Source: Bacillota bacterium
Lineage (GTDB): Bacteria > Bacillota > DTU025
DNA: 64,000 nucleotides
Direction of reading: 5' to 3'
Assembly (NCBI GenBank): GCA_050951805.1
Contig: JBMNJT010000004.1
Coordinates: 106,120-170,119 of the forward strand
Made by a program: the position numbers and the translations under genes
The notes under the pieces: model-generated
The model's input: only the letters and a program-made list of their open reading frames with translations
The model's database searches: none
What the model was told of the DNA's origin: nothing
Shown here: positions 21,158 to 57,341 of the stretch, in pieces
Layout of the letters: every line of letters starts with the position of its first letter
How positions within the stretch are numbered: the first letter of the stretch is position 1

Positions 21158-21228
21158 CGGGGGATTGGCGGGCAGGCCCGTTAGAGCCTGCCTGTTTTTG
21201 GAAGGACAAAATACGCGAAGTTGGGGCA

Positions 21229-22154
21229 TGCACGATGAATGGTGGCGATGGAATGTGATTGTTTCAATAGCGAGCGGCAAAGGAGGAACGGGCAAGACTA
21301 CTGTCGCGGTCAACTTGGCGTTGGCCTTGGAGGGGGCTATGCCGATACGCTTTTTGGACTGCGATGTTGAGGAGCCCAATGCCCATCTTTTCCTCCATCC
21401 CGAAATCGAGCGCTCCGAAAAAGTAAGTTTGCCAGTTCCGGTTGTGGACGAGAGCAAGTGTAACGGATGCGGAAAATGCGCCCGGGTGTGCGCTTTCCAT
21501 GCGATCCTTGCCTTCAGCTCCCGGACGATCGTCCTGCCCGAGCTCTGTCATGGATGCGGGGGGTGTGCGCTTCTTTGCCCGCAGGGGGCGATAACGGAGA
21601 GCCCGAAGGTGATCGGGGAAGTGGAGACGGGGCGCGCAGGAGATATCAGGTTTGCCCATGGACGGACAGGGATCGGAAGCCCTCTGGCACCGCCTGTGGT
21701 GAAAGCGGTGAGGGAGGCGTTGGACAAGGAAGGCCTAGGGGCCGGGTTGACGATCATAGACGCGCCCCCCGGGACGTCCTGTCCGGTTGTGGCTTCGATC
21801 AAGGGCAGCGATTACTGCGTGCTGGTGACGGAGCCTACGCCCTTCGGCCTCAACGATCTTGGGCTGGCCGTTGGACTGGTTCGGGAGCTAGGCATACCCT
21901 GCGGCGTAGTGATTAACAGGGCCGGGTTGGGGGATGAGGCCGTTTCAGCCTATTGCAGCCGCGAGGGCATCCCTGTGTTGCTTGAAATACCATACGACAG
22001 GAAGTACGCCGAATGCTACGCTAAGGGCGGAAGGCTTGTGGATGACTTTCCAGAGCTCCGAGGCGCTTTGAAGGGGTTGTGGCGCAAGATCAGTGCGAGC
22101 GGCGAATCTGGCGCAGAGGGAGAGGATGGGCGAAGGGAGATGGGTGAGATATGA
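21229..22154 (+). CDS. MinD/ParA-superfamily P-loop ATPase with an inserted 2x[4Fe-4S] ferredoxin domain (COG1149-like) 1; start uncertain (ATG 21229 or GTG 21254)
   Basis: Deviant Walker A SGKGGTGKTT, then CNGCGKCARVC and CHGCGGCALLCP cysteine clusters. Confidence 0.75.
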
Positions 22155-23074
22155 AGGAGTTGCTCGTGATAAGCGGCAAGGGAGGCACCGGCAAGACGAG
22201 TGTAGTTGCGTCATTTGCGGCTTTGGCGGAGAACAAAGTCTTAGTCGACTGCGATGTGGATGCTGCCGACCTTCACCTCTTGCTTTCGCCAGAGGTAGTT
22301 GAATCCCATGAATTCATGGCTTCGCGACAGGCAACTGTCGATGTGAGCCGATGCACGGGGTGCGGTCATTGCAGCGAAGTGTGCCGCTTCGGCGCTATAG
22401 CCATGGCCTATGGGCATCCAACCATCGATCCGATTTCCTGTGAAGGGTGTACTGTGTGCTCCCATATTTGTCCCGAGGGTGCTATAACCATGGTCGACGT
22501 CATGTCAGGGCACTGGTACGTATCCCATACCCGGTTTGGGCCGATGGTCCATGCCAAGCTCAAGGCGGCTGAAGAGAACTCAGGGAAGCTCGTATCCCAA
22601 GTGAGGCGCAAGGCGCGGGAGATAGCCGAAAGCCAGGGGCACGAGTTGATCATTACCGACGGGCCGCCTGGGGTGGGATGCCCCGTCATATCCTCCATCT
22701 CCGGAGTGGATCTTGCCTTGATCGTAACGGAACCCACGGTGGCGGGGGTCCACGACATGGAGCGGGTCCTCGACCTTACGTGCCATTTCGGTGTAGAGTC
22801 GGCGGTATGTATCAACAAGTGCGATCTTGATGGGGCTAATGCTGAGCGCATAGAGGATTACTGTTGTGCAAGGGGAATCGAGATTGCGGGGAAGATCCCG
22901 TTCGATGAGGATATGGTAAGGGCGGTTGTAAGGGGTGAGCCGCCTGTTCTGTACGGAGATGGTGCTCCTGATTGCGCGGGCCCAGATAGCGTTGCGGGCG
23001 AAGCCGCGCAGGCTATACGCCAGCTTTGGGATAGGGTCGCTGTTCTTCTCGCGCGTGATGCGGGCTCTTTCTAG
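22151..23074 (+). CDS. MinD/ParA-superfamily P-loop ATPase with an inserted 2x[4Fe-4S] ferredoxin domain 2
   Basis: MKELLVISGKGGTGKTS, CTGCGHCSEVC, CEGCTVCSHICP. Its start overlaps the stop of the preceding paralog (ATGA). Confidence 0.8.
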   Translation: MKELLVISGKGGTGKTSVVASFAALAENKVLVDCDVDAADLHLLLSPEVVESHEFMASRQATVDVSRCTGCGHCSEVCRFGAIAMAYGHPTIDPISCEGCTVCSHICPEGAITMVDVMSGHWYVSHTRFGPMVHAKLKAAEENSGKLVSQVRRKAREIAESQGHELIITDGPPGVGCPVISSISGVDLALIVTEPTVAGVHDMERVLDLTCHFGVESAVCINKCDLDGANAERIEDYCCARGIEIAGKIPFDEDMVRAVVRGEPPVLYGDGAPDCAGPDSVAGEAAQAIRQLWDRVAVLLARDAGSF

Positions 23075-40135: not shown

Positions 40136-41645
40136 GTCAACCGACTGTGAAAATGTCACCCCTTTTGGGGGTTAATCCGTCTGAGAAAATGTCACCCCCT
40201 GTGGTTGTGTTCCGCTGGCGAGCCCGCGCATTATGCGCAGGCTCGCGGCCGATTGAGATTAGGGTGCCGCCAGCGGGAAACTGTTGTTTTGTCTGTTTTT
40301 GGTCTGGGTTGCCTAGCGTGCTTGTTGAATGCGTTGTTGACGCTCGTAGCTCGCATGTTTCCAGGGATGATCATCCGGGGGCTTCCATGGCATCCTCGGG
40401 GCTTTAGGCTCTTGGGCTGCAGCCGAGGCTGAGTCTTCGATCGCCGGTGTGGAGTTGAACTCGGCTAGGCTGTAGCATTTTCCCTTGTAGAGTGCGTTGA
40501 TTGACCCGTCCATGTGCGTAAGCACGAAAACGGGATCCCTCCTGGCCAATCCGACAACATGGCCGTATGCGTCCAGAAGACGGAACTTGGTGCCATGGTA
40601 GGATATGAGTGATCCTCCCAGCCCTTGACGAGATTCCCTGATCGAAAGAATCATGTCGAGATCCATGTCGGGGGGCGGGTGTCTCATCAGCTGCAGGAAC
40701 GGCAAAGCGGGCGTTGTACCTGGGGATATATCTGAGGAGGAACTCATTTGCCTGTTCGATTGTGTTGATTCCGGCGAGGCGCATTTCAATAGGCAGTCTT
40801 CCCTGAAGCGTCTCCCATGCGCGCTCAATGCGGCCCTTTGCTTGAGGCGAATGCGCTGGTATGTGAGTGATCTGTAGTTCGTCGAGAATGCGGCCTATCT
40901 GGGTAAGGTTGACCCGTTTGCCCTGGAGTTGTTCTTCGATGGTGAGCTTGTCCATCTTGGGCGAGAAAAACATGGTATGGCGGTCAGAATACAAGCACAG
41001 CGGTATGCCGTTGTTCTCAAGCACCTGACGGAACACATGGAGGTATCCTATGATGTCTTCCTGAGGCCTGAAATACAGGCCCAGGATGGCTCCGGTGGCG
41101 TCGTCGATGATCCCATGAAGCGACATAGCTGGGCCTCTTCCTTCGAGCCAGTCGTAGGGACTGGCGTCGCATTGGAGCAAGATGCCCGATTGGGGTTTTC
41201 GCTCTCGCATGCGTCTGTGGCGCGGGGCTCTTTTGGTGGAGCACACTATCCCGGCTTTTTTCAGCAATCGTTGTACAGTGCGTGGACTCACCGAGATCTG
41301 ATAGCCCTCTGCCATGAGCTCGGACATATGGGTGCAATTTGCGTCTTTCAGGTCGGTCTGAGCTAGCTCTATGATGCGTGATGGGTCTAAAGGCTTGCGT
41401 CCGGCATTGCCATGCCCCAGGGCCTGGACCCCGTTACTCTGCATCTCCTTTTTGATCCGTTTGATCTGGCGGACACTTAATCCAAGCATCTTGGCAGCCT
41501 GCGCGTTTGTGATTTGCCCGGCGGCAAGCTGATCCATTACGAAGACCCTCTTCCGTACTTTTTCCGTCAAGATGACGTCCCCCTTGTTCATGGGTGACAT
41601 TATCTCAGACGCGTTATGGGGTGACAATATCACAGACGCGTAACA
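40136..41645 (-). mobile_element. IS element copy A (about 1.5 kb, rve/DDE transposase, IS481/ISNCY-like), transposase frameshifted
   Basis: Imperfect terminal inverted repeats (left ctgtgaaaatgtcacccc...; right ...ggggtgacaatatcacag), each end carrying a second inner copy of the motif. Near-identical to copy B except for a 14-nt deletion that shifts the transposase frame near 40690. Confidence 0.7.
40404..41633 (-). pseudogene. IS transposase, copy A (N-terminal HTH + rve integrase core), C-terminal part out of frame
   Basis: The N-terminal 330 aa are identical to copy B. The C-terminal region continues in another frame (ORF 40313..40828 encodes the expected ...ILSIRESRQ ... tail). Confidence 0.6.
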
Positions 41646-41662: not shown

Positions 41663-43240
41663 GTCAACCGACTGTGAAAATGTCACCCCTTTTGGGGGTT
41701 AATCCGTCTGAGAAAATGTCACCCCCTGTGGTTGTGTTCCGCTGGCGAGCCCGCGCATTATGCGCAGGCTCGCGGCCGAGTCAAGGATCGGCCTGCGGCC
41801 TGCTTTGCTCCTTGACTCGGCCTCTGCGCCTGCTCGAGATTAGGGTGCCGCCAGCGGGGAACTGTTGTTTTGTCTGTCTTGGCTCTGGGCTGCTTTGCGT
41901 GCTTGTTGAATGCGTTGTTGGCGCTGGTAGCTTGCACGTTTCCAGGGATGATCGTCCGGGGGCTTCCATGGCATCCTCGGGGGCTTGGACTCTTTAGCTG
42001 CAGTTGAGGCGGAGTCTTCGACCGCCGGTGTGGAGTTGAACTCGGCCAAGCTGTAGCATTTGCCCTTGTAGAGTGCGCTGATTGACCCGTCCATGTGCGT
42101 AAGCACGGAAACGGGATCCTTCCTGGCCAATCCGACAACATGGCCGTACGCGTCCAGAAGACGGAACTTGGTGCCATGGTAGGATATGAGTGATCCTCCC
42201 AGCGCTTGACGAGATTCCCTGATAGAAAGAATGACGTCCAGATTCATCTCTGGGGTCAGAGCACGAAAAGCGGGTGTCTCATCAGCTGCAGGAACGGCAA
42301 AGCGGGCGTTGTACCTGGGGATATATCTGAGGAGGAACTCATTTGCCTGTTCGATTGTGTTGATTCCGGCGAGGCGCATTTCAATAGGCAGTCTTCCCTG
42401 AAGCGTCTCCCATGCGCGCTCAATGCGGCCCTTTGCTTGAGGCGAATGCGCTGGTATGTGAGTGATCTGTAGTTCGTCGAGAATGCGGCCTATCTGGGTA
42501 AGGTTGACCCGTTTGCCCTGGAGTTGTTCTTCGATGGTGAGCTTGTCCATCTTGGGCGAGAAAAACATGGTATGGCGGTCAGAATACAAGCACAGCGGTA
42601 TGCCGTTGTTCTCAAGCACCTGACGGAACACATGGAGGTATCCTATGATGTCTTCCTGAGGCCTGAAATACAGGCCCAGGATGGCTCCGGTGGCGTCGTC
42701 GATGATCCCATGAAGCGACATAGCTGGGCCTCTTCCTTCGAGCCAGTCGTAGGGACTGGCGTCGCATTGGAGCAAGATGCCCGATTGGGGTTTTCGCTCT
42801 CGCATGCGTCTGTGGCGCGGGGCTCTTTTGGTGGAGCACACTATCCCGGCTTTTTTCAGCAATCGTTGTACAGTGCGTGGACTCACCGAGATCTGATAGC
42901 CCTCTGCCATGAGCTCGGACATATGGGTGCAATTTGCGTCTTTCAGGTCGGTCTGAGCTAGCTCTATGATGCGTGATGGGTCTAAAGGCTTGCGTCCGGC
43001 ATTGCCATGCCCCAGGGCCTGGACCCCGTTACTCTGCATCTCCTTTTTGATCCGTTTGATCTGGCGGACACTTAATCCAAGCATCTTGGCAGCCTGCGCG
43101 TTTGTGATTTGCCCGGCGGCAAGCTGATCCATTACGAAGACCCTCTTCCGTACTTTTTCCGTCAAGATGACGTCCCCCTTGTTCATGGGTGACATTATCT
43201 CAGACGCGTTATGGGGTGACAATATCACAGACGCGTAACA
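41663..43240 (-). mobile_element. IS element copy B (intact; contains an extra 48-nt palindromic insertion in the transposase 3' region)
   Basis: Same ends as copy A. The 48-nt insert ccgagtcaagga ... tccttgactcgg lies at about 41776-41830. Confidence 0.7.
41840..43228 (-). CDS. IS transposase, copy B (HTH + rve/DDE integrase core), apparently intact
   Basis: rve core with D..D..E context (LLQCDASPYDW, LYSDRHTMF, HSPQAKGRIERAWETLQ). The start is set by identity to copy A (MILSPHNASEIMSPMNKGDV...). The ORF track extends it artificially upstream to 43576. Confidence 0.75.
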   Translation of the reverse strand: MILSPHNASEIMSPMNKGDVILTEKVRKRVFVMDQLAAGQITNAQAAKMLGLSVRQIKRIKKEMQSNGVQALGHGNAGRKPLDPSRIIELAQTDLKDANCTHMSELMAEGYQISVSPRTVQRLLKKAGIVCSTKRAPRHRRMRERKPQSGILLQCDASPYDWLEGRGPAMSLHGIIDDATGAILGLYFRPQEDIIGYLHVFRQVLENNGIPLCLYSDRHTMFFSPKMDKLTIEEQLQGKRVNLTQIGRILDELQITHIPAHSPQAKGRIERAWETLQGRLPIEMRLAGINTIEQANEFLLRYIPRYNARFAVPAADETPAFRALTPEMNLDVILSIRESRQALGGSLISYHGTKFRLLDAYGHVVGLARKDPVSVLTHMDGSISALYKGKCYSLAEFNSTPAVEDSASTAAKESKPPRMPWKPPDDHPWKRASYQRQQRIQQARKAAQSQDRQNNSSPLAAP

Positions 43241-43289
43241 GATTGAAAACCCAACCTTGACATCCGCTACACGGGGGTATATACTGTCT

Positions 43290-43630
43290 CCAAGTTTAAA
43301 ATCGCAGCTAAACGCAATGACGGGGATGAGTACTCGCACAGTACCGGGCACAGAGAGCCGGCCTCGAGCTGAAAGCCGGAACCGCGGAAATGCGACGAAC
43401 ATGGCCCCTGAGCGGCCGTCCGAACTTCCTCCGCTTTGCTCCTTGATGGGCAGGGAGGGAAAGTAGGCGCGGACGTGTGCGCACGTTAAAGCGCCGGGGT
43501 CTAGCGAATCGGATGGATTCGCCGCACCTGCCGAGGCGCGGTATCGTGAGAACCGCGTGAACCTGGGTGGTACCACGAAGGATTAGTCCTCTCGTCCCAG
43601 GCATTTTGCCTGGGGGAGAGGGCTTTTTGC
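43290..43630 (+). promoter_or_regulatory. Putative T-box riboswitch leader (probably Met-specific) with antiterminator/terminator, upstream of metF-metH
   Basis: A near-consensus T-box sequence GGGTGGTACCACG (43565-43577; consensus AGGGUGGNACCGCG) sits immediately 5' of a strong terminator hairpin (cctctcgtcccagg cattttg cctgggggagagg, 43588-43620) followed by cttttt. Upstream helices (cgtgtgcgcacg, gcgaatcggatggattcgc) could form stems I-III. The specifier codon was not identified. Confidence 0.5.
43588..43628 (+). terminator. Rho-independent terminator of the leader (14-bp stem, T-tract)
   Basis: cctctcgtcccagg / cctgggggagagg followed by gctttttg. Confidence 0.6.
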
Positions 43631-43709: not shown

Positions 43710-44645
43710 ATGGCAAGATTATTGAACAGGTTGAGGCAGGGCAGCTTTGCGGTTACGGTGGAGGTTAACCCCCCGAAAGGTGCGGATGTTTCCAAGACGC
43801 TTGCGCTGGTTCGCCGGTTTTCTGACCGGGTGGACGCCGTGAATGTGGCGGACTGCCCTATGGCAAATGTGAGGATGAGCCCTATTACCTTAGCCCACCT
43901 TATCCAGCGCGATGTAGGGGTAGAGGCCATTTTCCACCTTACGTGCCGTGATCGCAACACCATAGGGCTTCAGGCGGAGCTTTTGGGTGCCTCCGGGCTC
44001 GGAGTCAGGAACATACTGGCCCTCAGGGGCGATCCGCCGTCGAGGGGGGATCATCCGGAGGCCCATGGAGTGTTCGAGGTAGATGCTGTTGGGCTAATCA
44101 GCTTGGCCGCCGCGCTCAACTCGGGACACACGGTAGGCGGCGGCGAGCTGGGTGAAGGGACCGATTTCGCCATCGGTTGCGTAGCAAATCCCAACGCCGA
44201 AGATCTTGAGGCCGAGATATCGAGGCTGGAGGAGAAGATCGCAGCTGGAGCGCACTTCGTCCAGACCCAGCCCATTTTCGACGTCCGCGCCTATGAAAGG
44301 TGGGCTAATGCCATAGACGGGCGGGTGAGCATCCCTATCCTCTACGGGATACTCCCTATCAAAGATGCTGCCTTTGCTGTGCACCTAAAGGAGAATGTTC
44401 CTGGCATGGCGGTGCCCGACTGGGTTATCGACCGGATGCGCTCCGGGGGAGACGGTGAAGGGTACAGGCTGGCTGCGGAGTTGCTATCGGAGATAGGGAA
44501 GGATATCGCCGGGATACACATCTTCCCCATGAACAGTTCCAAGCGGGTTGTAGGCGTGCTGGACGCCTTGGCCGAGGAGGGGTTTGCGGTGCCCCCGGTA
44601 CAAACGGCATGCGACGGCCTGCGGAAGGTGGCTCCGAACGGATGA
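43710..44645 (+). CDS. metF: 5,10-methylenetetrahydrofolate reductase
   Basis: MTHFR (TIM-barrel) family motifs: FAVTVEVNPPKG, VNVADCPMANVRMSP, LTCRDRN, LALRGDPP. Confidence 0.8.
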   Translation: MARLLNRLRQGSFAVTVEVNPPKGADVSKTLALVRRFSDRVDAVNVADCPMANVRMSPITLAHLIQRDVGVEAIFHLTCRDRNTIGLQAELLGASGLGVRNILALRGDPPSRGDHPEAHGVFEVDAVGLISLAAALNSGHTVGGGELGEGTDFAIGCVANPNAEDLEAEISRLEEKIAAGAHFVQTQPIFDVRAYERWANAIDGRVSIPILYGILPIKDAAFAVHLKENVPGMAVPDWVIDRMRSGGDGEGYRLAAELLSEIGKDIAGIHIFPMNSSKRVVGVLDALAEEGFAVPPVQTACDGLRKVAPNG

Positions 44646-47107
44646 GTGTGCGTGTGGAGGATCTGATCCGTGGGGACGAGGTGTTCGTGTTTGACGGGGC
44701 ATTTGGGACGATGCTTCAGGCGCGCGGTCTGCCTCCCGGAGCCTGTCCTGAAGTGTGGTGCCTAAAGTGCCCGGAAGAAGTGGAGCGGGTTCACCGCCAG
44801 TATATTGATGCCGGCGCGCAGGTGATCGAGACTTGCACTTTCGGGGGCACAGCTTTGCGGCTCGGACATTTCGGGCTAGCTCATGCGGCGCGGGAGATCA
44901 ACCTGGCTGCCGTCGAGATTGCCCGGAGGGCTGCTGCCGACCGCGGAACGCTTGTGGCGGCTTCCATGGGCCCCCTGGGGGCATTGGTGGAGCCTTTGGG
45001 CGAAGTCAGTTTCGATGAAGCCTATCTGCAATTTGCGGAGCAGGCGGAGGCGTTTGCCCTGGCGCGACCGGACCTTATCATCATCGAGACCATTGCCGAT
45101 CTCAACGAGATGCGCGCAGCGCTCCTCGCGTGCCGCGATCGTGCGCCAGACATCCCGGTAATCGCCCAGATGACATTCGATTCCACAGGCCGAACCTTCA
45201 CCGGCACTCCGCCGGAGTCGGCCGCGCTCGTCATGGAGTCGATGGGGGCGTCTGTCGTGGGCGTCAACTGCTCTGTCGGCCCGGACCTGCTCGCAGATGT
45301 TGTAGCTCGGATGGGGGCTGTTACATCAAAGCCAATATCGGTCCAGCCCAATGCTGGACTGCCGCATGTGGGCCCATCGGGGCGGGGCGAGTATCCAATG
45401 GGGCCTGAGGAATTCGCGTCCTACGGCCCTAAGCTGGTGTCGGCGGGAGCCTCTATCGTAGGGGGCTGCTGCGGAACTACCCCGGAGCACATCGCAAGGC
45501 TTCGCAGTGCGCTGGAGGGGCTCCGGCCGATCGTGCGAAGGCGCGAGCCTGAGCTTGGTATAACTTCCCGGACTCAGCCTCTGTTTTTCGCCGATGCGGA
45601 GCTGCCCGCGATTGTGGGCGAGAGGATTAACCCAACTGGCAGGCGCAAACTTGCCCAAGACATTGTCGACGGCAGCTTCGAGCTAGTTCGGAAGGAAGCG
45701 GTTGCTCAGGCTAAGGCGGGAGCGCAAGCTCTCGATGTGAATGTGGGCACGCCTCTTGCGAACGAGCCGTGGGCGATGTATGAAGCAGTGAAGGCGATTG
45801 AGGCGACCACTCGTCTGCCGCTCTGCCTCGACTCTTCATCTGCCGAGGCTCTCGAAGCAGGGCTTCGGGCTTATGCAGGCCGAGCCTTGGTCAACTCCTT
45901 CTCGCTGGAGCGTGGCAGGGAAGAGGACGTGCTGAGGCTTGCAGCCAGATACGGCGCGGCGGTGATAGGCTTGCCTATCGACGAGAACGGGATTCCGGCG
46001 ACGGCAGAGGACCGGCTGAGACTGGCTGAGCGGCTCGTCTCGAGCGCACAATCTCATGGAATCCCCCAAAATGCGGTGATCATCGACGCTTTGGCGATGC
46101 CTTGCGGGGCAAAGCAGGAACAGGCTGTGGAGACTCTCAAGGCCATAGAGATGATCCGCAAAGAGCTGGGCTGCAAGACTTCTCTGGGGATTTCCAATGT
46201 ATCGTTCGGGCTTCCGAGCAAGCCCGTGTTGAACACTGCATTCTTGATGCTGGCCATCGCTGCCGGGTTAGACATGGCTATAGCTAACCCCCTTGATGAG
46301 GCGATGATGGCTCAGGTGCGGGCGGCAAGGGTCCTTCTCGGGCGGGATGTTAATGCGGAAAGATACATCTTGTGGGCGGGCGCGGCGTCGCCTGCACCTC
46401 ATGGCGTTGCTGCCGATCCAGGCGGGAAGAAGAAGTTGACCTTGATCTATGATGCGGTCCTCGGGGGCGACAAGGACCTCGCCGTAAGGTTTGTGGAGGA
46501 GGCGGTTTCGGAGGGAGAGGATCCGTCTTCTATCCTAAACGACGCGCTCATCCCGGCTATAGAAGAGACCGGACGGCGCTTCGCCTCAGGCGCTTACTTC
46601 CTCCCTGAACTGATGCTGTCGGCAGGGGCCATGCAGGCTGCAACTGAAGTTATCAGGTCCAGGGTAGGCAGCGCAGAGGATGCGCCGGCATCCCGAGGAA
46701 CTGTGGTGATTGCCACAGTCGAAGGGGATATCCACGACATAGGCAAGAACATCGTCTCCATGTTCCTCGAAAGCAACGGCTACAACGTAGTAGACCTGGG
46801 AAAGAACGTTAAGGCCAGGGATGTTCTGGCAGGGGCCAAGAAGGCAGGGGCCGACGTGGTCTGCCTGAGCGCGCTGATGACAACGACGGCTCCGAAGATG
46901 CGCGAGTCGATAGAGCTTTTTTCAAGCGAGGGGTACGATTGCCCAATCATCATTGGAGGCGCAGCTACATCACGGGAGTACGCCATACGCATAGGAGCGG
47001 ACGGATACGGCAGTGATGCCGTGGAAGCGGTCTTCGAGGTAGAAAGGCTTTTGGCAAGAAAGCGTGCTTTTGGGCGGCAAAGCGATCAAGTGGGAGGGAA
47101 AGAGTAG
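44642..47107 (+). CDS. metH: Cobalamin-dependent methionine synthase, short form lacking the C-terminal reactivation domain (Hcy S-methyltransferase + pterin-binding + B12 cap + B12-binding)
   Basis: Hcy-binding domain (VFDGAFGTMLQ ... GGCCGTTPEHI), pterin domain (IVGERINPTGRRK ...), B12-binding DxHxxG-like (VEGDIHDIGKNIV). ATG 44642 overlaps the metF stop (ATGA). 821 aa. Confidence 0.85.
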   Translation: MSVRVEDLIRGDEVFVFDGAFGTMLQARGLPPGACPEVWCLKCPEEVERVHRQYIDAGAQVIETCTFGGTALRLGHFGLAHAAREINLAAVEIARRAAADRGTLVAASMGPLGALVEPLGEVSFDEAYLQFAEQAEAFALARPDLIIIETIADLNEMRAALLACRDRAPDIPVIAQMTFDSTGRTFTGTPPESAALVMESMGASVVGVNCSVGPDLLADVVARMGAVTSKPISVQPNAGLPHVGPSGRGEYPMGPEEFASYGPKLVSAGASIVGGCCGTTPEHIARLRSALEGLRPIVRRREPELGITSRTQPLFFADAELPAIVGERINPTGRRKLAQDIVDGSFELVRKEAVAQAKAGAQALDVNVGTPLANEPWAMYEAVKAIEATTRLPLCLDSSSAEALEAGLRAYAGRALVNSFSLERGREEDVLRLAARYGAAVIGLPIDENGIPATAEDRLRLAERLVSSAQSHGIPQNAVIIDALAMPCGAKQEQAVETLKAIEMIRKELGCKTSLGISNVSFGLPSKPVLNTAFLMLAIAAGLDMAIANPLDEAMMAQVRAARVLLGRDVNAERYILWAGAASPAPHGVAADPGGKKKLTLIYDAVLGGDKDLAVRFVEEAVSEGEDPSSILNDALIPAIEETGRRFASGAYFLPELMLSAGAMQAATEVIRSRVGSAEDAPASRGTVVIATVEGDIHDIGKNIVSMFLESNGYNVVDLGKNVKARDVLAGAKKAGADVVCLSALMTTTAPKMRESIELFSSEGYDCPIIIGGAATSREYAIRIGADGYGSDAVEAVFEVERLLARKRAFGRQSDQVGGKE

Positions 47108-48271
47108 ATGGGCTACAGGAGCTTTGAAGAGATAAACGAGAAGATACGCAGCAAAAAGGCGGTTGTTGTGACTGCTGAGGAGATAATAGAGATTGTGGAC
47201 GAGAAGGGGGTAGAGGGGGCCTTTCGCGACGTGGATGTCGTGACTTGCGGCACTTTCAGCCCGATGTGTTCCTCAGGGGCTTTTCTCAACTTCGGCCACT
47301 CTGATCCTCCCATAAGGATGAGCCGCGTGTGGCTAAATGACGTGCCGGCATGCGCTGGGCTTGCTGCTGTAGACGCCTATATCGGTGCAACGGAGCTCTC
47401 GGAGACCGCGGGGATGGAATACGGGGGAGCGCACGTCATCGAAGACCTCATAGCAGGCAGAAAGGTGAGGCTTAAGGCCACTTCCTACGGGACAGACTGT
47501 TATCCTCGGCGCGCGCTCGAGGCATGGATTACCAAGGATTCAATCAATGAGGCCTACATGTTCAACCCCCGCAACTGCTACCAGAATTACGGGGCGGCGA
47601 CCAATTCCTCGGACCGCACTATTTATACGTACATGGGAACACTCCTGCCCCACTTTGGGAATGTGAACTACTGCACTGCAGGCGAGCTCAGCCCTTTGAT
47701 AAACGACCCGTTCTACCGCACGATCGGGTTGGGTTCACGGATATTCCTCGGAGGCGCCCAAGGGTACGTTGCGTGGCAGGGAACCCAGAACAACCCGTCG
47801 CAGCCTCGGGCGGAAAACGGGGTTCCTATCGGCGGAGCGGCATGCCTCGCTCTTATAGGCGACCTAAAACAGATGGATCCGAGATACATAAGGGCCGCCA
47901 GGTTCGAAAAGTATGGGGTGACCATGTTTGTCGGAGTGGGCACTGCCATTCCTCTGCTGGACGAGGAGATGGTCAGATTCGTCGCGGTGCAAAACCGCGA
48001 CATAAAGACGAAGGTCTTTGATTACAGCGTCGGTCGTCGATCCAAACCTGCATTGGCCGAAGTCTCCTACGAGGAACTGCGGAGCGGGAGTGTTCAGATT
48101 GGGTCGCGCACGATCCCTACCGCGCCTCTTTCCAGCCTGAAGGTGGCGCGGGAGATAGCCCAGACGTTGAAAGGCTGGATTGCCCGAGGAGAGTTCCTGT
48201 TGCAGCAGCCTGTGGCGGCTCTTCCGCTCGAAGGCTCGCCGACTACACTAGATAACTGTGAGGGGGAGTAA
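47108..48271 (+). CDS. COG1900/DUF39 homocysteine-biosynthesis protein (methanogen MA1821-type, sulfide-dependent)
   Basis: Length and N-terminal region (KAVVVTAEEIIEIVDEKG ... VDVVTCGTFSPMCSSGAF) fit the DUF39 family. The tight gene order with an NIL-ferredoxin supports the assignment. Confidence 0.65.
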   Translation: MGYRSFEEINEKIRSKKAVVVTAEEIIEIVDEKGVEGAFRDVDVVTCGTFSPMCSSGAFLNFGHSDPPIRMSRVWLNDVPACAGLAAVDAYIGATELSETAGMEYGGAHVIEDLIAGRKVRLKATSYGTDCYPRRALEAWITKDSINEAYMFNPRNCYQNYGAATNSSDRTIYTYMGTLLPHFGNVNYCTAGELSPLINDPFYRTIGLGSRIFLGGAQGYVAWQGTQNNPSQPRAENGVPIGGAACLALIGDLKQMDPRYIRAARFEKYGVTMFVGVGTAIPLLDEEMVRFVAVQNRDIKTKVFDYSVGRRSKPALAEVSYEELRSGSVQIGSRTIPTAPLSSLKVAREIAQTLKGWIARGEFLLQQPVAALPLEGSPTTLDNCEGE

Positions 48272-48273
48272 GG

Positions 48274-48732
48274 ATGACCGTGGAGAGGACTGTTGGGGCC
48301 GATGGCATAACTGATGCGACGACGGCAAAGAGAGTTAAGGCGTTGCTGACCTACCCTCCGGGCGCGGCAGGCAAGCCCATAACTTACTCCCTGATCCGCG
48401 AGTTCGATCTGTGGATCAATATTCTCCACGCCGAAATCGCCGCGGACAAAGCCGGCAAGCTCATCATGGACATACAGGGAAGCGTTGAAGATGTGGATCG
48501 GGGCTTGGAGTTCCTCGACGAAGAGGGCATTGGGTACGAGATCCTAAATGGCAGCATCGTTTGGGATGAGGACAAGTGCGTGCATTGTGGAGCATGCACG
48601 GCTGTATGCCCTTCGCACGCGCTCACTATGGATAACTGTGATTGGAGCCTTGTATTTGACAAAGAGAAATGCTATCTTTGCCGGTTGTGCGCCCGCACAT
48701 GTCCCGTGGGGGCAATGAGCTCGCCCATATAG
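48274..48732 (+). CDS. NIL-domain + 2x[4Fe-4S] ferredoxin protein (MA1822-type partner of COG1900)
   Basis: N-terminal NIL-like domain, then CVHCGACTAVCP and CYLCRLCARTCP clusters. Confidence 0.7.
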   Translation: MTVERTVGADGITDATTAKRVKALLTYPPGAAGKPITYSLIREFDLWINILHAEIAADKAGKLIMDIQGSVEDVDRGLEFLDEEGIGYEILNGSIVWDEDKCVHCGACTAVCPSHALTMDNCDWSLVFDKEKCYLCRLCARTCPVGAMSSPI

Positions 48733-48742
48733 AGGGGGCGGG

Positions 48743-49609
48743 ATGGGCAAAGATAGGTTGGGGGAAAGTTGCGTGAGAGAAGCCTACGAACCGAGGAAAT
48801 ACAGGGAGCTTTTCAGCGCTCAAGATGTAATCTATTTCAGATGCGCCGTGGGGCAGACTGATCTTCAAGTCGGCGTTGGCTTCTCTTGCCCTGATTTTCG
48901 CGGGAAACTTCCCGAAGAGAGCTTTCTTCGGGATCATGTCTCGGGCGTTGTTCTTCGCGCCCGCAGAGATATCGAAAACTACATCGCCACTCACCCCGAG
49001 TTTCTCACTAGCCTCATCCCGGTGATTCCGCGGCCATGGGCGCCGCCTATTGTCAGATGGATGTGCGCCTGTGCTGCGCAGGCAGGGGTGGGGCCCATGG
49101 CCGCCGTGGCCGGCGCCATAAGCGAGACGGTTGGGATCAGCCTCCTGTCGGAGGATAGCCTTTCTAAGCTGTGGCAGCGCGAGCCTGACATTGGGAATCC
49201 TGATGGGCATCGAGCGAGGATAAGTGAAGTGATAGTGGAGAATGGGGGAGACGTGTTCATCGCCTCCAGCCGTTTGCGCAGGGTTGGAATCTACGCGGGC
49301 ACGTCCCCTTTGAGTGGCAAGATTGCCCTGGAGATTGCTCCGGGCCAGACCCCTTGCGGCATCTGTACGTCTTCTGGAACGGTCGGGCATTCGCGCAGTT
49401 TCGGTAGATGCGACGGAGCCGTGATCGTTGCGAAAGACACAGCCCTCGCCGATGCCGTTGCCACTAGGGTCGCAAATGTCGTGAAATCGAGGGAGGACAT
49501 TGAAGAGGCGTTGGACACGGCTTCGAAGATTCCCGGCATAGTCGGGGCTGTTATCGTCATCGGCGATGCCTTGGGGGCATGGGGCGATATCAAGCTGGCG
49601 CCGGCGTGA
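48743..49609 (+). CDS. UPF0280/COG2122 ApbE-superfamily protein (third component of the anaerobic homocysteine biosynthesis set)
   Basis: Family-typical regions PMAAVAGAISETVG and GICTSSGTVGHSRSFG. Last gene of the operon. Confidence 0.55.
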   Translation: MGKDRLGESCVREAYEPRKYRELFSAQDVIYFRCAVGQTDLQVGVGFSCPDFRGKLPEESFLRDHVSGVVLRARRDIENYIATHPEFLTSLIPVIPRPWAPPIVRWMCACAAQAGVGPMAAVAGAISETVGISLLSEDSLSKLWQREPDIGNPDGHRARISEVIVENGGDVFIASSRLRRVGIYAGTSPLSGKIALEIAPGQTPCGICTSSGTVGHSRSFGRCDGAVIVAKDTALADAVATRVANVVKSREDIEEALDTASKIPGIVGAVIVIGDALGAWGDIKLAPA

Positions 49610-49709
49610 AGAAACATAGCAAATCGCAACATGGCTGACATTGAGCCCGGTTCCATTTTATCTGGGGCAACATAGAATAAGCCAGACCTACCTCAGGAGG
49701 TGACCGGAC

Positions 49710-49820
49710 GTGGCCGACGTGACTGCCAGCCAGTGCTTCTGCCCTTGGTGGTTCTGGCTTTGGGTTGCGATCATCGCATTCATCGTGTGCTGCATCTGCC
49801 GTTTCGTGCTTTGCTGGTAA
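49710..49820 (+). CDS. 36-aa Cys/Trp-rich hydrophobic small protein (sORF 1): VADVTASQCFCPWWFWLWVAIIAFIVCCICRFVLCW
   Basis: AGGAGG RBS (49695-49700) 9 nt upstream of GTG 49710. A paralogous copy lies 197 bp downstream with mostly conservative or synonymous substitutions in this frame. Confidence 0.5.
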   Translation: MADVTASQCFCPWWFWLWVAIIAFIVCCICRFVLCW

Positions 49821-49906
49821 GGCACGATTTTCCTCCGCGCAAGTAAGATCAAGTTCGCTTCAGGCGTCATAGTATGGACCAGACATGCATCAGGAGGTGA
49901 CCGGAT

Positions 49907-50017
49907 GTGGCCGAAGTGACTGCCAGCCAGTGCTGTTTTCCTTGGTGGATTTGGTTTTGGGTAGTGGTAATCGCATTCATCGTGTGCTGCATTTGCCATT
50001 TTATGCTTTGCTGGTAA
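49907..50017 (+). CDS. 36-aa Cys/Trp-rich hydrophobic small protein (sORF 2): VAEVTASQCCFPWWIWFWVVVIAFIVCCICHFMLCW
   Basis: Same AGGAGG RBS and 9-nt spacing to the GTG start; same length and stop. Tandem paralog of sORF 1. Confidence 0.5.
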   Translation: MAEVTASQCCFPWWIWFWVVVIAFIVCCICHFMLCW

Positions 50018-50085
50018 GAACCAGCTCGTCCCCACGCTGGCAAAACAGCTCATCGCCTATATCGAGCTTGGACAACGGCCCACGC

Positions 50086-50115
50086 GCCATCCGCCCGCCA
50101 CGGTGGGCGGATGGC
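50086..50115 (+). terminator. GC-rich 14-bp hairpin (gccatccgcccgcc ac ggtgggcggatggc) downstream of the sORF pair
   Basis: Seen directly; about 70 nt after the sORF 2 stop. No clear U-tract. Confidence 0.35.
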
Positions 50116-50515
50116 GTTGGTGATGCGTCCCGCCGCACCTGTTAAAAGAAAGGACGGACCCGTTGCAAGGACTGATATCCTTGACCACACAAAAGATGAC
50201 AGGAAAGGTTGGAGATGAGCTTTTATCAGAAGGCGCGCGGCAGGGTCTTCCGCGAAATGGTCGTCACATATTGGCGCCGTGACCGCGTTGATGTTGATAG
50301 CGATAATCGCGTGCTGGATTCTGAAGCCCGAGCGGAAACCCGGACGTGTCTATAGAGCCGATTGTGGGTGCCGCTTTGGCTCCTGATCGATGATGATCAG
50401 CATTTCCGCCTCGCACAAGAACAGAGCAGCAGGACTGCGGCATCGGTGGTCTCTTTCCCTGCGCGATTTAGAGCAGGGAAGGGCGTCGTGCCGCAGTCAG
50501 CTTTGTCTCCACTCA

Positions 50516-51220
50516 TCAGCCAGCGTTTCCGCTCATCAGCTCCTCGAGTTCCTCAGAGTCTTTGCAGGCATACACGGCCTTGTAATAGGCCACATCCGCC
50601 ATGCGGGCGCATTCTGCAAGGGTTATCTTTCGGCCGGCAGCCGCAAGTTCTCTGGCGGCTTCGAGTATCTTCTCTCTCGTCTGTTCTTTGGGCACTCTCT
50701 CATACTTCCCTCGCGGTTTCGACGGGGTCGCAGCGCGTCCCCCAGTTCCCGGACCCGCGGTGCCGATGGCTGAAACCTGTGAGGCAGGGAGGCTGGGTGT
50801 GGGAAATGATGTGACTGCCAATCCTTCCTGAGGTTCGATTCTCTTCAGAAGCTCGAGAAGAGCCCTGTCTGTTCTGCTGGCCAAGGCCGCAAGGTCGCGG
50901 CGGACTAAGTCGAGGGATGCCACAACGGTGGCCAGCTGCTCTCCGATTCGCCTTTCCAGACCTACGGGATCGGCAAGGGCAGGCGAAGTCCTTGCGCCCG
51001 ACAAGATGTCGAGTAGATTTGAGAATGCTGCTAGAGACTTCTTTCCAATCTCTTCGTAAGTGCCATTGTCCACATTAGAGACCTCCTCGTACGACGGTGT
51101 TTCTTCTCTACTGCGCTTGAGTGCCGCTTCTTGCACAATAGCGGCATAATAGCGCTGTTTCCCACGAGAGCGCAATTGGGTTGCACCTCCTGCCATATTA
51201 TTATTTCCAAACTCGTTCAT
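50516..51220 (-). CDS. Hypothetical protein with a possible C-terminal HTH (…KITLAECARMADVAYYKAV…)
   Basis: ORF only; no family recognised. Divergent from the HD-GYP gene. Confidence 0.35.
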   Translation of the reverse strand: MNEFGNNNMAGGATQLRSRGKQRYYAAIVQEAALKRSREETPSYEEVSNVDNGTYEEIGKKSLAAFSNLLDILSGARTSPALADPVGLERRIGEQLATVVASLDLVRRDLAALASRTDRALLELLKRIEPQEGLAVTSFPTPSLPASQVSAIGTAGPGTGGRAATPSKPRGKYERVPKEQTREKILEAARELAAAGRKITLAECARMADVAYYKAVYACKDSEELEELMSGNAG

Positions 51221-53230: not shown

Positions 53231-55093
53231 CTATGCTAGCTTGAACCTGGCTGCAAGCTGCTGTAGCCTTGCTGCCATGTCGGCAAGGGAATGGGAAGCA
53301 GAGGACATCTGCTGCAGCGAAGCGGTGATTTGCTCCGTTGAGGCCGCCACTTCCTCTACTGAAGCCGCGTTTTCTTCGGATATGGCAGCTACGTTTTCGA
53401 TAGCTTTTTGCACTTGTTGTATGCTCGCTGCCATCTGCTGGGATGCCGCGGCGTTCTCGTCAGCCACTGCTACAACTTCTACAGTGGCCTCGTTCACATC
53501 GCTCGCTCCCTCCATCAAGCTGTTGCTAGATTCGACTACTGAATGCGCAAGCTCTAGGTTGTTCGCGGCGTGGTTGCTTATGTTATGCAAAACCTCTGTG
53601 GATTCGATTACCAGTGGAAGGCTCTCTTCTACGAGATCGTTTGTGCCTCTGATGGCCGATGCCACTTTGCCTACTTCTGCCAATGTTTGCTCGATCAGTC
53701 CCGAGATGACCTTCGTTTCATTTAGCGAGCCCTCTGCGAGTTTCCGCACTTCGTCCGCTACCACCGCAAAACCGCGGCCCTGTTCGCCGGCGCGCGCCGC
53801 TTCTATGGCGGCGTTGAGAGCCAGAAGATTGGTCTGATCCGCGATATCCTCTATTACCTGCACCACCTGGACCATCTGGCGCGAACTTGCCTCTAGGTCT
53901 GCCGCCGCCTGCTCCACTTCGTTTGACGAGTTCTTTATCCTTTCCATGCTGGCGGCTACTTGGGCGACTGACCGGTCTCCCTTTTCGGCCTCTTTTGCTG
54001 TGGCATTTATGGCTTCTTCCATTTTCATAACGAAGTCATTTACATGGTCGAGCTCTTGCCCCATTTGGGCTATGAGGCGGGATACGTTCTGCAATTGCTG
54101 CGTTTGCTGGCCCGCTCCATCGGCTATCTGCTCGATTGCTGCAGCCACCTGCTGCGCGCCTGCGGCGGTCTCGCCGGCATTGGCGCTCTGTTGCTCGGCC
54201 CCTGAGGCCATCTCCTGGATTGCCGCGGAAATCTGCTGGGCAGCGTGGGCCGATTCCTCTCCGGATGCGGAGAGCTCTTCGCTGGTGCTCGCAACCTGCT
54301 CAGCTTCGTTTTGCATTTCGCTCAGCAAATTGGTTAGGTTTTCAACCATTTTCCTGGTGGATGTGGCAAGGTCTGCTATTTCGTCGCCTGTGTTGAGGAT
54401 CGGCACTGAGACTGTGAGGTCTCCCTGGGCTACCGACTCCGCGGCGACCTGGATTGTCTTCACCGGTTTGGTGATGTTGCGGTTGAGGAGAATTGTCATG
54501 ATAACCGCTATTGCTATGTTGGCTATCATGCCGACTAAGGAGATTAGATCGTTTATTCTGCTCGCGGACTCTGCTTTGGCAATTGACTGTCTGTTCTGAT
54601 CCTGTATGAGCTGGATCCAATTATGGATTGTCTGGTCAAGTTCGTCTATGAGGAATACTTCTCTTTCTTCGATCAAAGCATAGGCCTCATCCATCATTTC
54701 GAATTCGACAAAGACGGAAATATCGTCTGCGAAGCTGTTGTAACGATTATTTATGTCGGTTAGGAGCTCCAACGCTCGCTGAGATTCCTTATCTTCGCAC
54801 AGCGGCTGCATTTCATCGAAGAGCTGTAGAACGTCGTCATCTATGGTGTAGAACTTGACGATGGTGGCCGGGTCGCCTGTCATTACGTAGCCGCGCAAGG
54901 CTATGCCTTTTTCCAAGATCTCGCTTCGAACTTTCCAAACTATCGTTTCTAGGGGAAGATTTTGCTCAACAAGGTTTGCGTAGTGCTTCGTCGTTACCCT
55001 GTCAGTGTAGATGTTCGCCATGCTCATGATTAGCATGACCAAGAGGACGATTATGTAGGAAAAGATGATCTTGCCTCGTATTTTGAACTTCAT
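53231..55093 (-). CDS. Methyl-accepting chemotaxis protein (4HB-type sensor, HAMP, MCP signalling domain), paralog 1
   Basis: Start at the ATG preceded by GGGAGG (minus strand). The TM-flanked sensor, HAMP and conserved MCP hairpin region are identical over about 460 aa to the next gene. Confidence 0.85.
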
Positions 55094-55295
55094 AGCCTGG
55101 CCTCCCATTACTTCCTGCATATTAATTATATCGACAGGAATGAGGGAAATATTAGGGAGGAAGACGCTCATGAGAAGAATCCGGCTTTTTGTGTGGATTG
55201 GCATAGTCTCGGAGGCCCTTTAGCAGAACCGAGAGAAGTAGTCACAATAGGAAATGAGAAATGCCCTGAGCTGTCAGGGCATTTCTCGATTCGAT

Positions 55296-57158
55296 CTATG
55301 CAAGCTTGAACCTGGCTGCAAGCTGCTGTAGCCTTGCTGCCATGTCGGCAAGGGAATGGGAAGCGGAGGACATCTGCTGCAACGAAGCGGTGACTTGTTC
55401 TGTCGAGGCTGCTACCTCCTCTACTGAAGCCGCGTTTTCTTCGGATATGGCAGCTACGTTTTCGATGGCCTTCTGCATTTGCTGTATACTCGCTGCCATC
55501 TGCTGGGATGCCGCGGCGTTCTCGTCAGCCACTGCTACAACTTCTACAGTGGCCTCGTTCACATCGCTCGCTCCCTCCATCAAGCTGTTGCTAGATTCGA
55601 CTACTGAATGCGCAAGCTCTAGGTTGTTCGCGGCGTGGTTGCTTATGTTATGCAAAACCTCTGTGGATTCGATTACCAGTGGAAGGCTCTCTTCTACGAG
55701 ATCGTTTGTGCCTCTGATGGCCGATGCCACTTTGCCTACTTCTGCCAATGTTTGCTCGATCAGTCCCGAGATGACCTTCGTTTCATTTAGCGAGCCCTCT
55801 GCGAGTTTCCGCACTTCGTCCGCTACCACCGCAAAACCGCGGCCCTGTTCGCCGGCGCGCGCCGCTTCTATGGCGGCGTTGAGAGCCAGAAGATTGGTCT
55901 GATCCGCGATATCCTCTATTACCTGCACCACCTGGACCATCTGGCGCGAACTTGCCTCTAGGTCTGCCGCCGCCTGCTCCACTTCGTTTGACGAGTTCTT
56001 TATCCTTTCCATGCTGGCGGCTACTTGGGCGACTGACCGGTCTCCCTTTTCGGCCTCTTTTGCTGTGGCATTTATGGCTTCTTCCATTTTCATAACGAAG
56101 TCATTTACATGGTCGAGCTCTTGCCCCATTTGGGCTATGAGGCGGGATACGTTCTGCAATTGCTGCGTTTGCTGGCCCGCTCCATCGGCTATCTGCTCGA
56201 TTGCTGCAGCCACCTGCTGCGCGCCTGCGGCGGTCTCGCCGGCATTGGCGCTCTGTTGCTCGGCCCCTGAGGCCATCTCCTGGATTGCCGCGGAAATCTG
56301 CTGGGCAGCGTGGGCCGATTCCTCTCCGGATGCGGAGAGCTCTTCGCTGGTGCTCGCAACCTGCTCAGCTTCGTTTTGCATTTCGCTCAGCAAATTGGTT
56401 AGGTTTTCAACCATTTTCCTGGTGGATGTAGCAAGGTCGGCTATTTCGTCGCCTGTGTTGAGGATCGGCACTGAGACTGTGAGGTCTCCCTGGGCTACCG
56501 CGTCCGCGGCGACCTGGATTGTTTTCACCGGTTTAGTGATGTTGCGGTTGAGGAAAATTGTCATGATAACCGCTATCGCTATGTTGGCTATCATGCCGAC
56601 TAAGGAAAATAGATCCTTTGATTGGCCGGTTGCCTTGGCTGTGTTTACCCAATTGTCATTCAGGCCCTCAATGAACTCGACCCACTCAGCGATGACATCG
56701 TCAACTTGTCCGAGGATCAAAGCGCCTTCATCAGCCATCAATGCGGTTGCCTCTTCTGTCATCCCAAGCTGAACAAGGTGTGAGATGTCTTCGGCGAGCA
56801 AATCATAGCGGTCGTTAATTTCGGCCAATAGCTCCAACGACTGCAATGATTTGCCAGCCTGGCTCAGCATGCGGGCCTTATCCATGCTCTGCTCAACGTT
56901 CTCATCGAGCAGATGGAATCTTTCGATTTCTGCGGGATTGCCCGAGAGTATGTAACCGCGCAGGGCCAGCCCTTTTTCCAAAAGCTCGCTGCGAAGCCTG
57001 TATATTATGGTCTCTCCGGGCAAGCTCCGCTCGATCAGGTTCATATATTCGTTCGTTATCTTACGATCAGCTTGAATGCCGAGTATGCTTATGGCAGCCA
57101 TGACTAAAAGGACGACTGTGTACGACAGTACGATCTTCCCACCTATCTTGAGCTTCAT
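55296..57158 (-). CDS. Methyl-accepting chemotaxis protein, paralog 2 (different sensor domain, identical signalling module)
   Basis: Same as above; start preceded by GGAGGTAGG. The N-terminal 200 aa differ from paralog 1. Confidence 0.85.
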
Positions 57159-57341
57159 TGGCCTACCTCCTGTTGCGTCATGCAATAATCTTATCGGCAA
57201 ACGCAAGCACCGATATTAGGTACGACATCAAAATTTTCGATATAATTTGATATAGACTGACACGGTTTATGCCGATATAGATAATGGGGCATTGGCATCG
57301 CTCATCTACCAAACCTGCGGTAAGGTGGGGAGGTACCAAAC

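Follow-up and report, generated by a model that had tools for sequence, protein, structure and literature searches.

What is encoded by two short tandem reading frames that lie side by side in an intergenic region of a Bacillota genome, and are they genes at all? Here, we analysed a stretch of 64,000 nt from contig JBMNJT010000004.1 (assembly GCA_050951805.1), in the following termed the window, in which an initial annotation made from the letters alone had pointed out two Cys- and Trp-rich short open reading frames (sORFs) with consensus ribosome-binding sites. Comparison with related genomes makes it very probable that both sORFs are genuine protein-coding genes under purifying selection. 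We read their products, with a probability of roughly 0.55, as constitutive single-pass membrane microproteins, which would act by packing their helices against one another or against a membrane protein encoded at another locus. They constitute a previously undescribed small, lineage-restricted family within a familiar kind, the small hydrophobic proteins of bacteria.

Two tandem reading frames and the evidence for coding

Read directly from the window sequence, two open reading frames (ORFs) of 36 codons are present on the plus strand where they had been proposed (Table 1). Their products are MADVTASQCFCPWWFWLWVAIIAFIVCCICRFVLCW (sORF1) and MAEVTASQCCFPWWIWFWVVVIAFIVCCICHFMLCW (sORF2). Both start with GTG, and the AGGAGG described for each of them is indeed found exactly 9 nt upstream. 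The sORFs are embedded in a direct repeat of 156 nt (49666-49821 versus 49863-50018) with 83% identity and a period of 197 nt, the similarity of which sets in about 44 nt ahead of the start codon (CATAG(A/T)AT…CCAGAC) and ends at the stop codon. No further copies or lookalikes were found elsewhere in the 64-kb window. From the stop codon of the upstream UPF0280/ApbE-like gene (48743-49609), it is 100 nt to sORF1. The two peptides share 75% identity and contain six Cys each, as had been counted before, together with five Trp each and not three to four. In a similar way, the differences between the copies turned out to be conservative, but not mostly synonymous as first described: we count about seven synonymous and nine non-synonymous differences, corresponding to a ratio of non-synonymous to synonymous substitution rates (dN/dS) of 0.24.

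Table 1 Features of the sORF locus in the window and homologues in related contigs.
Feature	Location	Strand	Description
Copy-1 upstream motif	49671..49687	+	CATAGAATAAGCCAGAC; -10-like (TAGAAT); probable start of the 5′ leader follows
Shine-Dalgarno sequence of sORF1	49695..49700	+	AGGAGG, 9 nt before GTG; read directly from the sequence
sORF1	49710..49820	+	36 aa; putative single-pass membrane microprotein, paralogue type 1 (PWWFWLWVA…)
Copy-1 terminator-like hairpin	49804..49827	+	Overlaps the sORF1 stop codon, followed by UUUU; -11.9 kcal/mol, z = -2.9
Copy-2 upstream motif	49868..49884	+	CATAGTATGGACCAGAC
Shine-Dalgarno sequence of sORF2	49892..49897	+	AGGAGG, 9 nt before GTG
sORF2	49907..50017	+	36 aa; putative single-pass membrane microprotein, paralogue type 2 (FPWWIWFWVVV…)
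Conserved block of the 3′ UTR	50061..50076	+	ATCGAGCTTGGACAAC; kept in L130 and L133, surrounding spacer not kept
GC-rich perfect hairpin	50085..50116	+	-35.9 kcal/mol, z = -5.7; 68 nt downstream of sORF2; no U tract
Homologues, two copies	L129-L132		UPF0280 70-74% identical to that of the window; MADVTTSQFFWPWWFWLWVAVIAFIVCCICRFVLCW; MADVTASQFCCFPWWIWFWVVVIAFIVCCICRFIF
Homologues, two copies	L133/L134		UPF0280 70-74% identical to that of the window; copy 1 as in L130; copy 2 MADVTTSQFFCFPWWIWLWVVVIAFIVCCFCRFIF
Homologue, one copy	L150/L151		Clostridia metagenome-assembled genome; UPF0280 52%, p234 55% identical; MADVVISQFWRPWWIWVWVAVIAFIVCCICRFWIFI
Homologue, one copy	L135-L144		Protein P0136; MAEVGANIFLIWPWWVWVWVAVIAFLVFLFCRFVLCI
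Homologue, one copy	L155		P0136 sequence with two changes (V17L, F28Y)
Homologue, one copy	L145/L147		MAEVGASQFFWPWWFWIWVAVIAFLVYLFLRFVLCI

Homologues were recovered by fetching contigs (handles beginning with L) via the neighbouring genes and via P0136, a protein of 37 aa. They occupy the same chromosomal spot in six further species-level lineages of uncultured Bacillota or Clostridia, and the peptides of the family range from 35 to 37 aa in length; the sORF2 orthologues of L130 and L133 have one extra in-frame codon and a stop two codons earlier. Copy 1 is closer to its orthologue (89% identity) than to copy 2 of the same genome (75%), hence the duplication is older than the three-species split and both copies have been retained since. 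The family looks vertically inherited within one narrow clade. An identical UPF0280 protein carries NCBI names of uncultured 'Bacillota bacterium' metagenome-assembled genomes, and seven contigs from other samples represent the same organism. In the intergenic region, two of these seven have one substitution each, located outside the sORFs, and five have none, so that such near-identical contigs are uninformative on selection. The contigs L001 (2568-2667) and L156 (2872-2964) show the same apparent loss of two codons or frameshift near the end of sORF2 (…CCICH--LCF). With a coverage of 0.5x and 1.3x, respectively, this probably reflects an assembly or sequencing error rather than decay, but it could also be a real variant allele.

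The alignment of the homologues argues for coding in several independent respects. Start codons (GTG or ATG) align throughout, stop codons are TAA or TAG, both indels in the family alignment comprise whole codons, and the Shine-Dalgarno sequence GGAGGTGA is invariant in 10/10 aligned copies, 8-9 nt before the start. Among the 36 sites at each codon position, 15, 12 and 27 are variable at positions 1, 2 and 3, respectively. Selection specific to this frame had been suspected from the two window copies and is strongly confirmed by the orthologues: the pooled dN/dS of four independent pairs is 0.17 in the sense frame (Fisher p = 6e-11), compared to 1.13 and 1.07 in the two shifted frames, and the sense frame is the sole frame open in all nine copies checked. 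Nei-Gojobori estimates of dN/dS are 0.08-0.17 for orthologue pairs and 0.19-0.24 for paralogues; those of the flanking genes are 0.07-0.28. Synonymous divergence (dS) amounts to 0.32-0.72 for the sORFs, 0.9-1.9 for the genes of the upstream operon and 0.57 for p234, the downstream neighbour. Between species in which UPF0280 is 70-74% identical, the sORF peptides reach 89%, and they still reach 67-75% where UPF0280 and p234 have dropped to 52-55%. The sORF peptides are thus more conserved than most of the neighbouring enzymes.

Peptide properties and a proposed mode of action

The conserved core of the family reads M-A-[DE]-V…P-W-W-x-W-x-W-V-x-x-I-A-F-x-V…[RH]-F. Invariant are M1, A2, V4, P12, W13, W14, W16, W18, V19, I22, A23, F24, V26 and F32; position 3 alternates between D and E, and R occupies position 31 in all copies but one, which has H. 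As proposed initially, the predicted product is a single hydrophobic transmembrane (TM) helix. Kyte-Doolittle maxima over 19 residues (2.5-2.7) lie far above TM thresholds, and AlphaFold2 models one continuous helix from residue 2 to 35 with a mean pLDDT of 81. The C-termini (CRFVLCW, CRFIF, RFWIFI, RFVLCI) have a single basic residue each, and the termini are conserved and not Gly-rich. Enrichment of Trp and Cys in a TM helix is unusually extreme here, and the sharply defined motif (PWWxWxW collar, IAF helix face, R/H-F) is tractable. However, the Cys residues themselves are not conserved: their number varies across the family (6, 6, 4, 5, 4, 3, 2, 2, 1), no Cys column is invariant, and Phe, Leu, Tyr, Trp or Ile stand elsewhere at the positions of the window Cys. 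Many of the exchanges (with Phe, Tyr and Trp) are between codons that are single-nucleotide neighbours. Judging from the alignment, Cys richness is a clade-specific substitution at hydrophobic positions, and the conserved feature is the Trp collar. The locus thereby offers a natural experiment, in which lipid-facing Phe, Leu and Tyr appear to have been replaced by Cys in one clade while the constraint was kept.

The order of a Trp-rich stretch, a TM helix and a Cys cluster recurs at the C-terminal end of the coronavirus spike protein S2 (PF01601; WPWYxW versus PWWxWxW here), and 5/8 family members gave a sub-threshold match to exactly that segment (best E = 0.72; roughly 6-10 bits, cut-off 40). 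This resemblance is one of composition and order, not of homology. S2 is a large viral fusion protein with palmitoylated Cys, and palmitoylation is not expected for the sORF products.

How would peptides of this kind act? Since positively charged residues tend to stay inside (positive-inside rule) and Trp favours membrane interfaces, we suggest that the peptide inserts into the cytoplasmic membrane as a single span with an N-out/C-in topology. Its short acidic N-tail (MA[DE]V…) would then face the outside and its sole basic residue (R/H31) the inside, and the Pro-Trp-Trp-x-Trp-x-Trp collar would be placed at the outer membrane-water interface. The invariant V-x-x-I-A-F-x-V stretch may serve as the helix-packing face, with helix-helix contacts forming inside the bilayer either between the paralogues, which are kept together, or to a larger membrane protein whose gene lies elsewhere. 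Cys residues would represent lineage-specific replacements of Phe, Leu or Tyr at lipid-facing positions. Following this argumentation, the peptides would be constitutive small components or modulators of the membrane, and not killers.

With no more than 50 codons, an invariant ribosome-binding site, a dN/dS of 0.17 and one predicted TM helix, the sORFs show the generic traits of small single-pass membrane proteins. In Escherichia coli, AcrZ, MgrB, MgtS, KdpF and CydX are single-helix proteins of 30-50 aa that pack against a larger membrane protein. The sORFs share with them the single predicted helix, purifying selection and normal ribosome-binding sites; the genes of such modulators, however, usually lie within or next to the partner operon or belong to a defined regulon, whereas the sORFs have no consistent partner and are tandemly duplicated. 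A further likeness exists to the Bacillus YhzE/YjcZ 'tiny TM' proteins, which are very small single-TM proteins of Firmicutes as well, often tandem and aromatic-rich, and for which antisense RNA was seen but no toxicity on overproduction (PMC2887945). The termini of YhzE are Gly/aromatic-rich and variable in length; in contrast, the sORF products have a conserved MA[DE]V N-tail and a fixed PWWxWxW collar. Membership in this family, which had been considered at the outset, is not supported, as the NCBIfam hidden Markov models (HMMs) of the tiny-TM and YjcZ families matched none of the eight family members even at E = 10.

Transcription signals and competing explanations

The pattern CATAGWATRRRCCAGAC occurs in the window only at the copy-1 motif and at 49868, with 0.1 occurrences expected by chance. 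The corresponding motif, CATAG(A/T)AT(R)(R)(R)CCAGAC, is found in most family loci and in every clade, including the distant L135, L147, L150 and L155, at 38-39 nt upstream of the start codon; it is more diverged before copy 2 in L130 and L133. The motif holds good -10 hexamers (TAGAAT, TAAAAT, TAGTAT), and in the clade linked to histidine (his) genes TCGCCA precedes it at 17 nt. Assignment of CATAG(A/T)AT to a sporulation-type sigma factor (cf. CATAnnnTA) was considered and dropped as speculation, as there is neither a matching -35 nor a sporulation gene in the window. At the 3′ side, a strong hairpin had been reported after each copy. The two are not equivalent: the stop codon of copy 1 overlaps a modest terminator-like hairpin, the strong hairpin is located 68 nt past copy 2, and the hairpin at the sORF2 stop itself is weak (-9.2 kcal/mol). 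The copy-1 hairpin is not conserved in L130 and L133 and is thus specific to the window lineage. The GC-rich hairpin further downstream is kept there with one change from G-C to G-U and probably closes the sORF unit, as a transcription stop or as a stabiliser of the 3′ end. A stable hairpin follows the sORF unit in all four lineages that were folded, although hairpins of different clades are non-homologous. In L150 and L155, a hairpin at the same position is followed by the promoter of the next gene (TTGACA/TTGACC-17-TAGAAT/TAAAAT), thus the sORF unit ends there. The best reading of these signals is that the sORFs form a small transcription unit of their own.

The leader (CCAGACC…AGG) can pair with the stretch of Pro and Trp codons in 10/10 copies, with 88.5% of the cells paired compared to 32-68% in slid registers, and the resulting helix takes in the first bases of the Shine-Dalgarno sequence. 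The 3′ partner of this helix is fixed by coding, however, and covariation within it is not above that of shuffled alignments (30/500); RNAalifold gives a covariation contribution of -0.4 kcal/mol, and the fold of the single sequence does not surpass shuffles (z = 0.12). The pairing may explain the conservation of the leader and could partly mask the Shine-Dalgarno sequence.

Several observations weigh against the reading as constitutive membrane microproteins with their own transcription unit. No canonical -35 precedes the upstream motif, and a sigma-70 consensus scan reports nothing at this position. A terminator that would separate the sORFs from the upstream operon is lacking as well, hence read-through transcription from that operon is possible. 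A partner protein cannot be named, the sole recurrent neighbours being a secreted hydrolase and a protein of about 230 aa. Topology and non-toxic action are what we infer and nothing beyond, and the tandem duplication, narrow distribution and intergenic position are typical of type I toxins as well. Among the roles proposed initially, 'small membrane regulator' and 'type I toxin-like' both stay viable.

We therefore paid particular attention to the idea of a type I toxin-antitoxin-like locus, which we regard as unlikely, yet as worth serious consideration. The peptides would damage the membrane and be curbed by an antisense or nearby small RNA and/or by a fold of their mRNA, with the two copies reflecting the duplication usual for such loci. 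Small size, hydrophobicity with a single predicted TM helix, tandem copies with similarity reaching into the 5′ flank, a narrow phylogenetic range and missing annotation all fit, and correspond to the search criteria of Fozo et al. 2010 (PMC2887945). The known loci ibs-sib, ldr-rdl and zorO-orzO (PMC2887945) resemble the sORFs in precisely these traits: fewer than 40 aa, one TM helix, tandem intergenic copies, 5′-flank similarity, absence from annotations and narrow vertical inheritance. The criteria of that study also comprise a polar, charged or bulky C-terminal cluster and an isolation of at least 400 nt upstream and at least 250 nt downstream (PMC2887945). In contrast, the sORF products lack a polar or charged C-terminal cluster, and the upstream gene is close (window, 100 nt; L135, 77 nt; L150, 178 nt). 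Unlike at the known loci, the leader is short (about 25 nt) with an exposed consensus Shine-Dalgarno sequence, and no antitoxin RNA was detected: neither an antisense promoter nor a terminator was found in the window, L130, L135 and L147, in a scan that is insensitive and misses the sense promoter too, and no conserved inverted repeat points to a small RNA acting in trans. The pairing of the leader with the Trp codons would suit control by an mRNA fold, but its covariation stays within shuffles and the mRNA is not more structured than these. Similarly, the dS of the sORFs is below that of the upstream operon genes, which would fit, but it equals that of the p234 neighbour. HMMs of toxin families (Hok, Ldr/Fst, TisB, Ibs, ShoB, TxpA/BsrG and others), PADLOC and PHROG gave no match, and no plasmid or phage homologue was found. 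More speculative, and in our view rather improbable, is a hetero-oligomeric Trp-collared assembly of the two paralogues, which might be either a type I-toxin-like pore silenced by its own leader:Trp-codon pairing, or an intramembrane CCxC thiol site (redox or metal) arisen by Phe-to-Cys exchanges in the clade linked to methionine (met) genes. If true, such a pore or thiol site would make this a mechanistically new small-protein family.

But could the codons, the Cys residues or the nucleic acid itself matter rather than a membrane peptide? Leader peptides of a ribosome-mediated attenuator, of which trpL is the model, would sense charged tRNA-Trp and tRNA-Cys by their runs of Trp and Cys codons and control a downstream hairpin and gene. 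WW and CC codon pairs are present, the copy-1 hairpin overlaps the stop codon, and in relatives the sORF is followed by a hairpin and a same-strand hydrolase gene. We nevertheless consider an attenuator extremely unlikely, as purifying selection covers the whole peptide including the N-tail and the aliphatic face of the helix, the Cys codons and the copy-1 terminator are not conserved, and the sORFs lie downstream, not upstream, of amino-acid operons (met or his). Moreover, the window lacks the gene to be controlled, insertions set it apart from the sORF in L135 and L147, and in L150 and L155 it has a promoter of its own. Cys-rich leader sORFs have been documented as attenuators in mycobacteria (bioRxiv 10.1101/834739), and these polycysteine sORFs are likewise short, unannotated, rich in clustered Cys codons and located near sulfur amino-acid genes. 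They are, however, leaderless and situated upstream of the regulated operon, and only their Cys codons matter (bioRxiv 10.1101/834739); here the sORFs have a strong Shine-Dalgarno sequence, and conservation extends over the whole peptide but not to the Cys codons. Cys-dependent chemistry was another early suggestion, either as a precursor of ribosomally synthesised and post-translationally modified peptides (RiPPs; SCIFF, sactipeptide or ranthipeptide-like) or as a metal- or redox-active thiol peptide tied to the sulfur amino-acid operon. It is favoured by the Cys content of the window copies (six in 36 residues), the adjoining homocysteine/methionine operon and the occurrence of Cys-rich variants (IVCCIC) beside met operons and of Cys-poor ones beside his operons; this correlation is confounded with phylogeny, as it involves two clades. 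Since Cys falls from six to one (2, 2 and 1 in homologues equally subject to purifying selection) without an invariant column, metal, redox and RiPP functions are disfavoured. In all lineages, the genes beside the sORFs include no radical S-adenosylmethionine (SAM), cyclase, protease or exporter gene, and the closest radical SAM ORF lies at a distance of 30 kb. The precursor models of NCBIfam and Pfam gave no match, and the predicted TM helix extends to the last residue, with no leader/core organisation; this makes Cys-dependent chemistry very unlikely. A non-coding repeat or structured RNA with incidental ORFs, finally, would account for the high nucleotide conservation of the 5′ flank and of parts of the ORF, for the conserved pairing potential of the leader, and for gene callers almost never calling these ORFs. 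It appears extremely improbable in view of frame-specific substitutions with an excess at third codon positions, in-frame indels, conserved start and stop codons, and a protein similarity that outlasts DNA divergence (L135, L147, L150); there is also no Rfam match, no significant fold and hardly any covariation.

Annotation gap and genomic neighbourhood

That the sORFs had been overlooked by annotation is borne out. A gene call of sORF1 is on record for one contig only, compared to 219 index blocks listing the neighbouring UPF0280 protein, and the sORF2 sequence is absent from the protein collection. Instead, some pipelines call an antisense ORF of 101-121 aa over the sORFs. In the window, this ORF (49688-50053, minus strand, 121 aa) spans both sORFs, and it is annotated as a gene in L004 and L007. 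In related species it is interrupted, with longest open stretches of 61 and 70 codons, and is thus a spurious annotation masking the real genes. Standard annotation hence misses two genes for which purifying selection is clear. Conserved hydrophobic microprotein families without assigned function are common, and the present one does not yet indicate a new principle.

Searches in Pfam, NCBIfam, PHROG, PADLOC, Rfam and PDB gave no match for the sORF peptides or the region. Scans of eight family members against NCBIfam and Pfam at E <= 10 yielded nothing beyond noise, and the Rfam scan of the region nothing at gathering score, the best result being a sub-threshold match of the copy-1 hairpin to a terminator-like small RNA model (21.9 bits, cut-off 50). 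An exhaustive HMMER profile search with the two peptides among 1.84 billion representative proteins returned only sORF1 itself and P0136 (E = 3e-5). A word-based protein search with the concatenated peptides gave no match; short proteins are apparently not word-indexed. Viral contigs, phages and plasmids contained no relatives of the sORFs, and megablast of the region against plasmids was empty. With a degenerate Trp/Cys-codon pattern of variable gap applied to genome contigs, the matches listed were off-frame in GC-rich genomes, and none of them encoded a relative. A metagenome-wide DNA pattern scan built to exclude the window clade recovered the L135 and L147 types only.

The operon upstream of the sORFs on the same strand (43710-49609) encodes MTHFR, a cobalamin-type methionine synthase, HcyBio/DUF39, a NIL-ferredoxin and UPF0280, and corresponds to the sulfide-dependent homocysteine route of methanogens and some anaerobes. 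Its methionine synthase has 832 aa with S-methyl_trans, pterin-binding and B12-binding domains, and the region upstream of the operon yielded neither a riboswitch nor any other Rfam element. Downstream follow the convergent gene of p234 (234 aa, 50516-51220, minus strand), a gene for a PAS/HD-GYP protein and two genes for methyl-accepting chemotaxis proteins (MCPs). Across the family, the sORFs lie between an amino-acid biosynthesis operon and a module composed of a secreted alpha/beta hydrolase of about 550 aa and the convergent p234. The flanking operon belongs to methionine/homocysteine synthesis in the window, L129-134 and L150, and to histidine synthesis in L135-144, L147 and L155. In the window, 355 nt without counterpart in relatives (50115-50469) replace 1.85 kb that carry the secreted hydrolase (about 560 aa) in L130 and L133; by this comparison, the hydrolase is lost from the window lineage, and the sORFs and p234 are kept. 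Other genes are inserted between sORF and hydrolase in L135 and L147. Conversely, L148/149 and L152 have the hydrolase and p234 but neither an sORF nor an analogous hydrophobic ORF, and L153/154 have the met operon only. The hydrolase and p234 were thus rejected as obligatory partners, the former being absent in the window and both being present without an sORF in L148 and L152. No maturase or partner gene stands next to the sORFs in any lineage examined. The spacer between UPF0280 and the sORF of L150 contains a 15-nt tandem repeat (9920-9992) of about four copies, 83-89% matching, which is absent in the other lineages.

A few further observations concern the neighbouring genes. The p234 protein is lineage-restricted (28 clusters among 8,000 word-sharing candidates scored from 5.8 billion sequences) and belongs to no Pfam family, and its gene is always convergent with that of the hydrolase. 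Its model comprises a long central helix, a disordered linker and a confident C-terminal domain of three to four helices, for which the best fold matches are DNA-binding domains of the TetR-type with a helix-turn-helix (HTH), not significant at E >= 0.15. Both MCP genes (53231-55204 and 55296-57206, minus strand) have the same architecture of CHASE3, HAMP and MCP signalling domain. Off-frame stretches at 54072 and 56137, identical between them as seen by tblastn, point to a recent tandem duplication. Two ORFs just upstream of the met operon (40404-41633 and 41840-43576, minus strand) share N-terminal HTH_29/HTH_28/HTH_23 domains; they resemble transposase genes and are possibly paralogues from insertion sequences. 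At 63-2009 (plus strand), the window encodes a Peptidase_S9/alpha-beta hydrolase of 648 aa, which is no close kin of the missing hydrolase (no tblastn hit at 1e-5). Two adjacent CbiA/ParA-type P-loop proteins with inserted 4Fe-4S ferredoxin domains are encoded at 21009-23074 (plus strand), and the same pair adjoins the hydrolase/p234 module in L149, beside genes with Nitro_FeMo-Co domains (dinitrogenase iron-molybdenum cofactor family).

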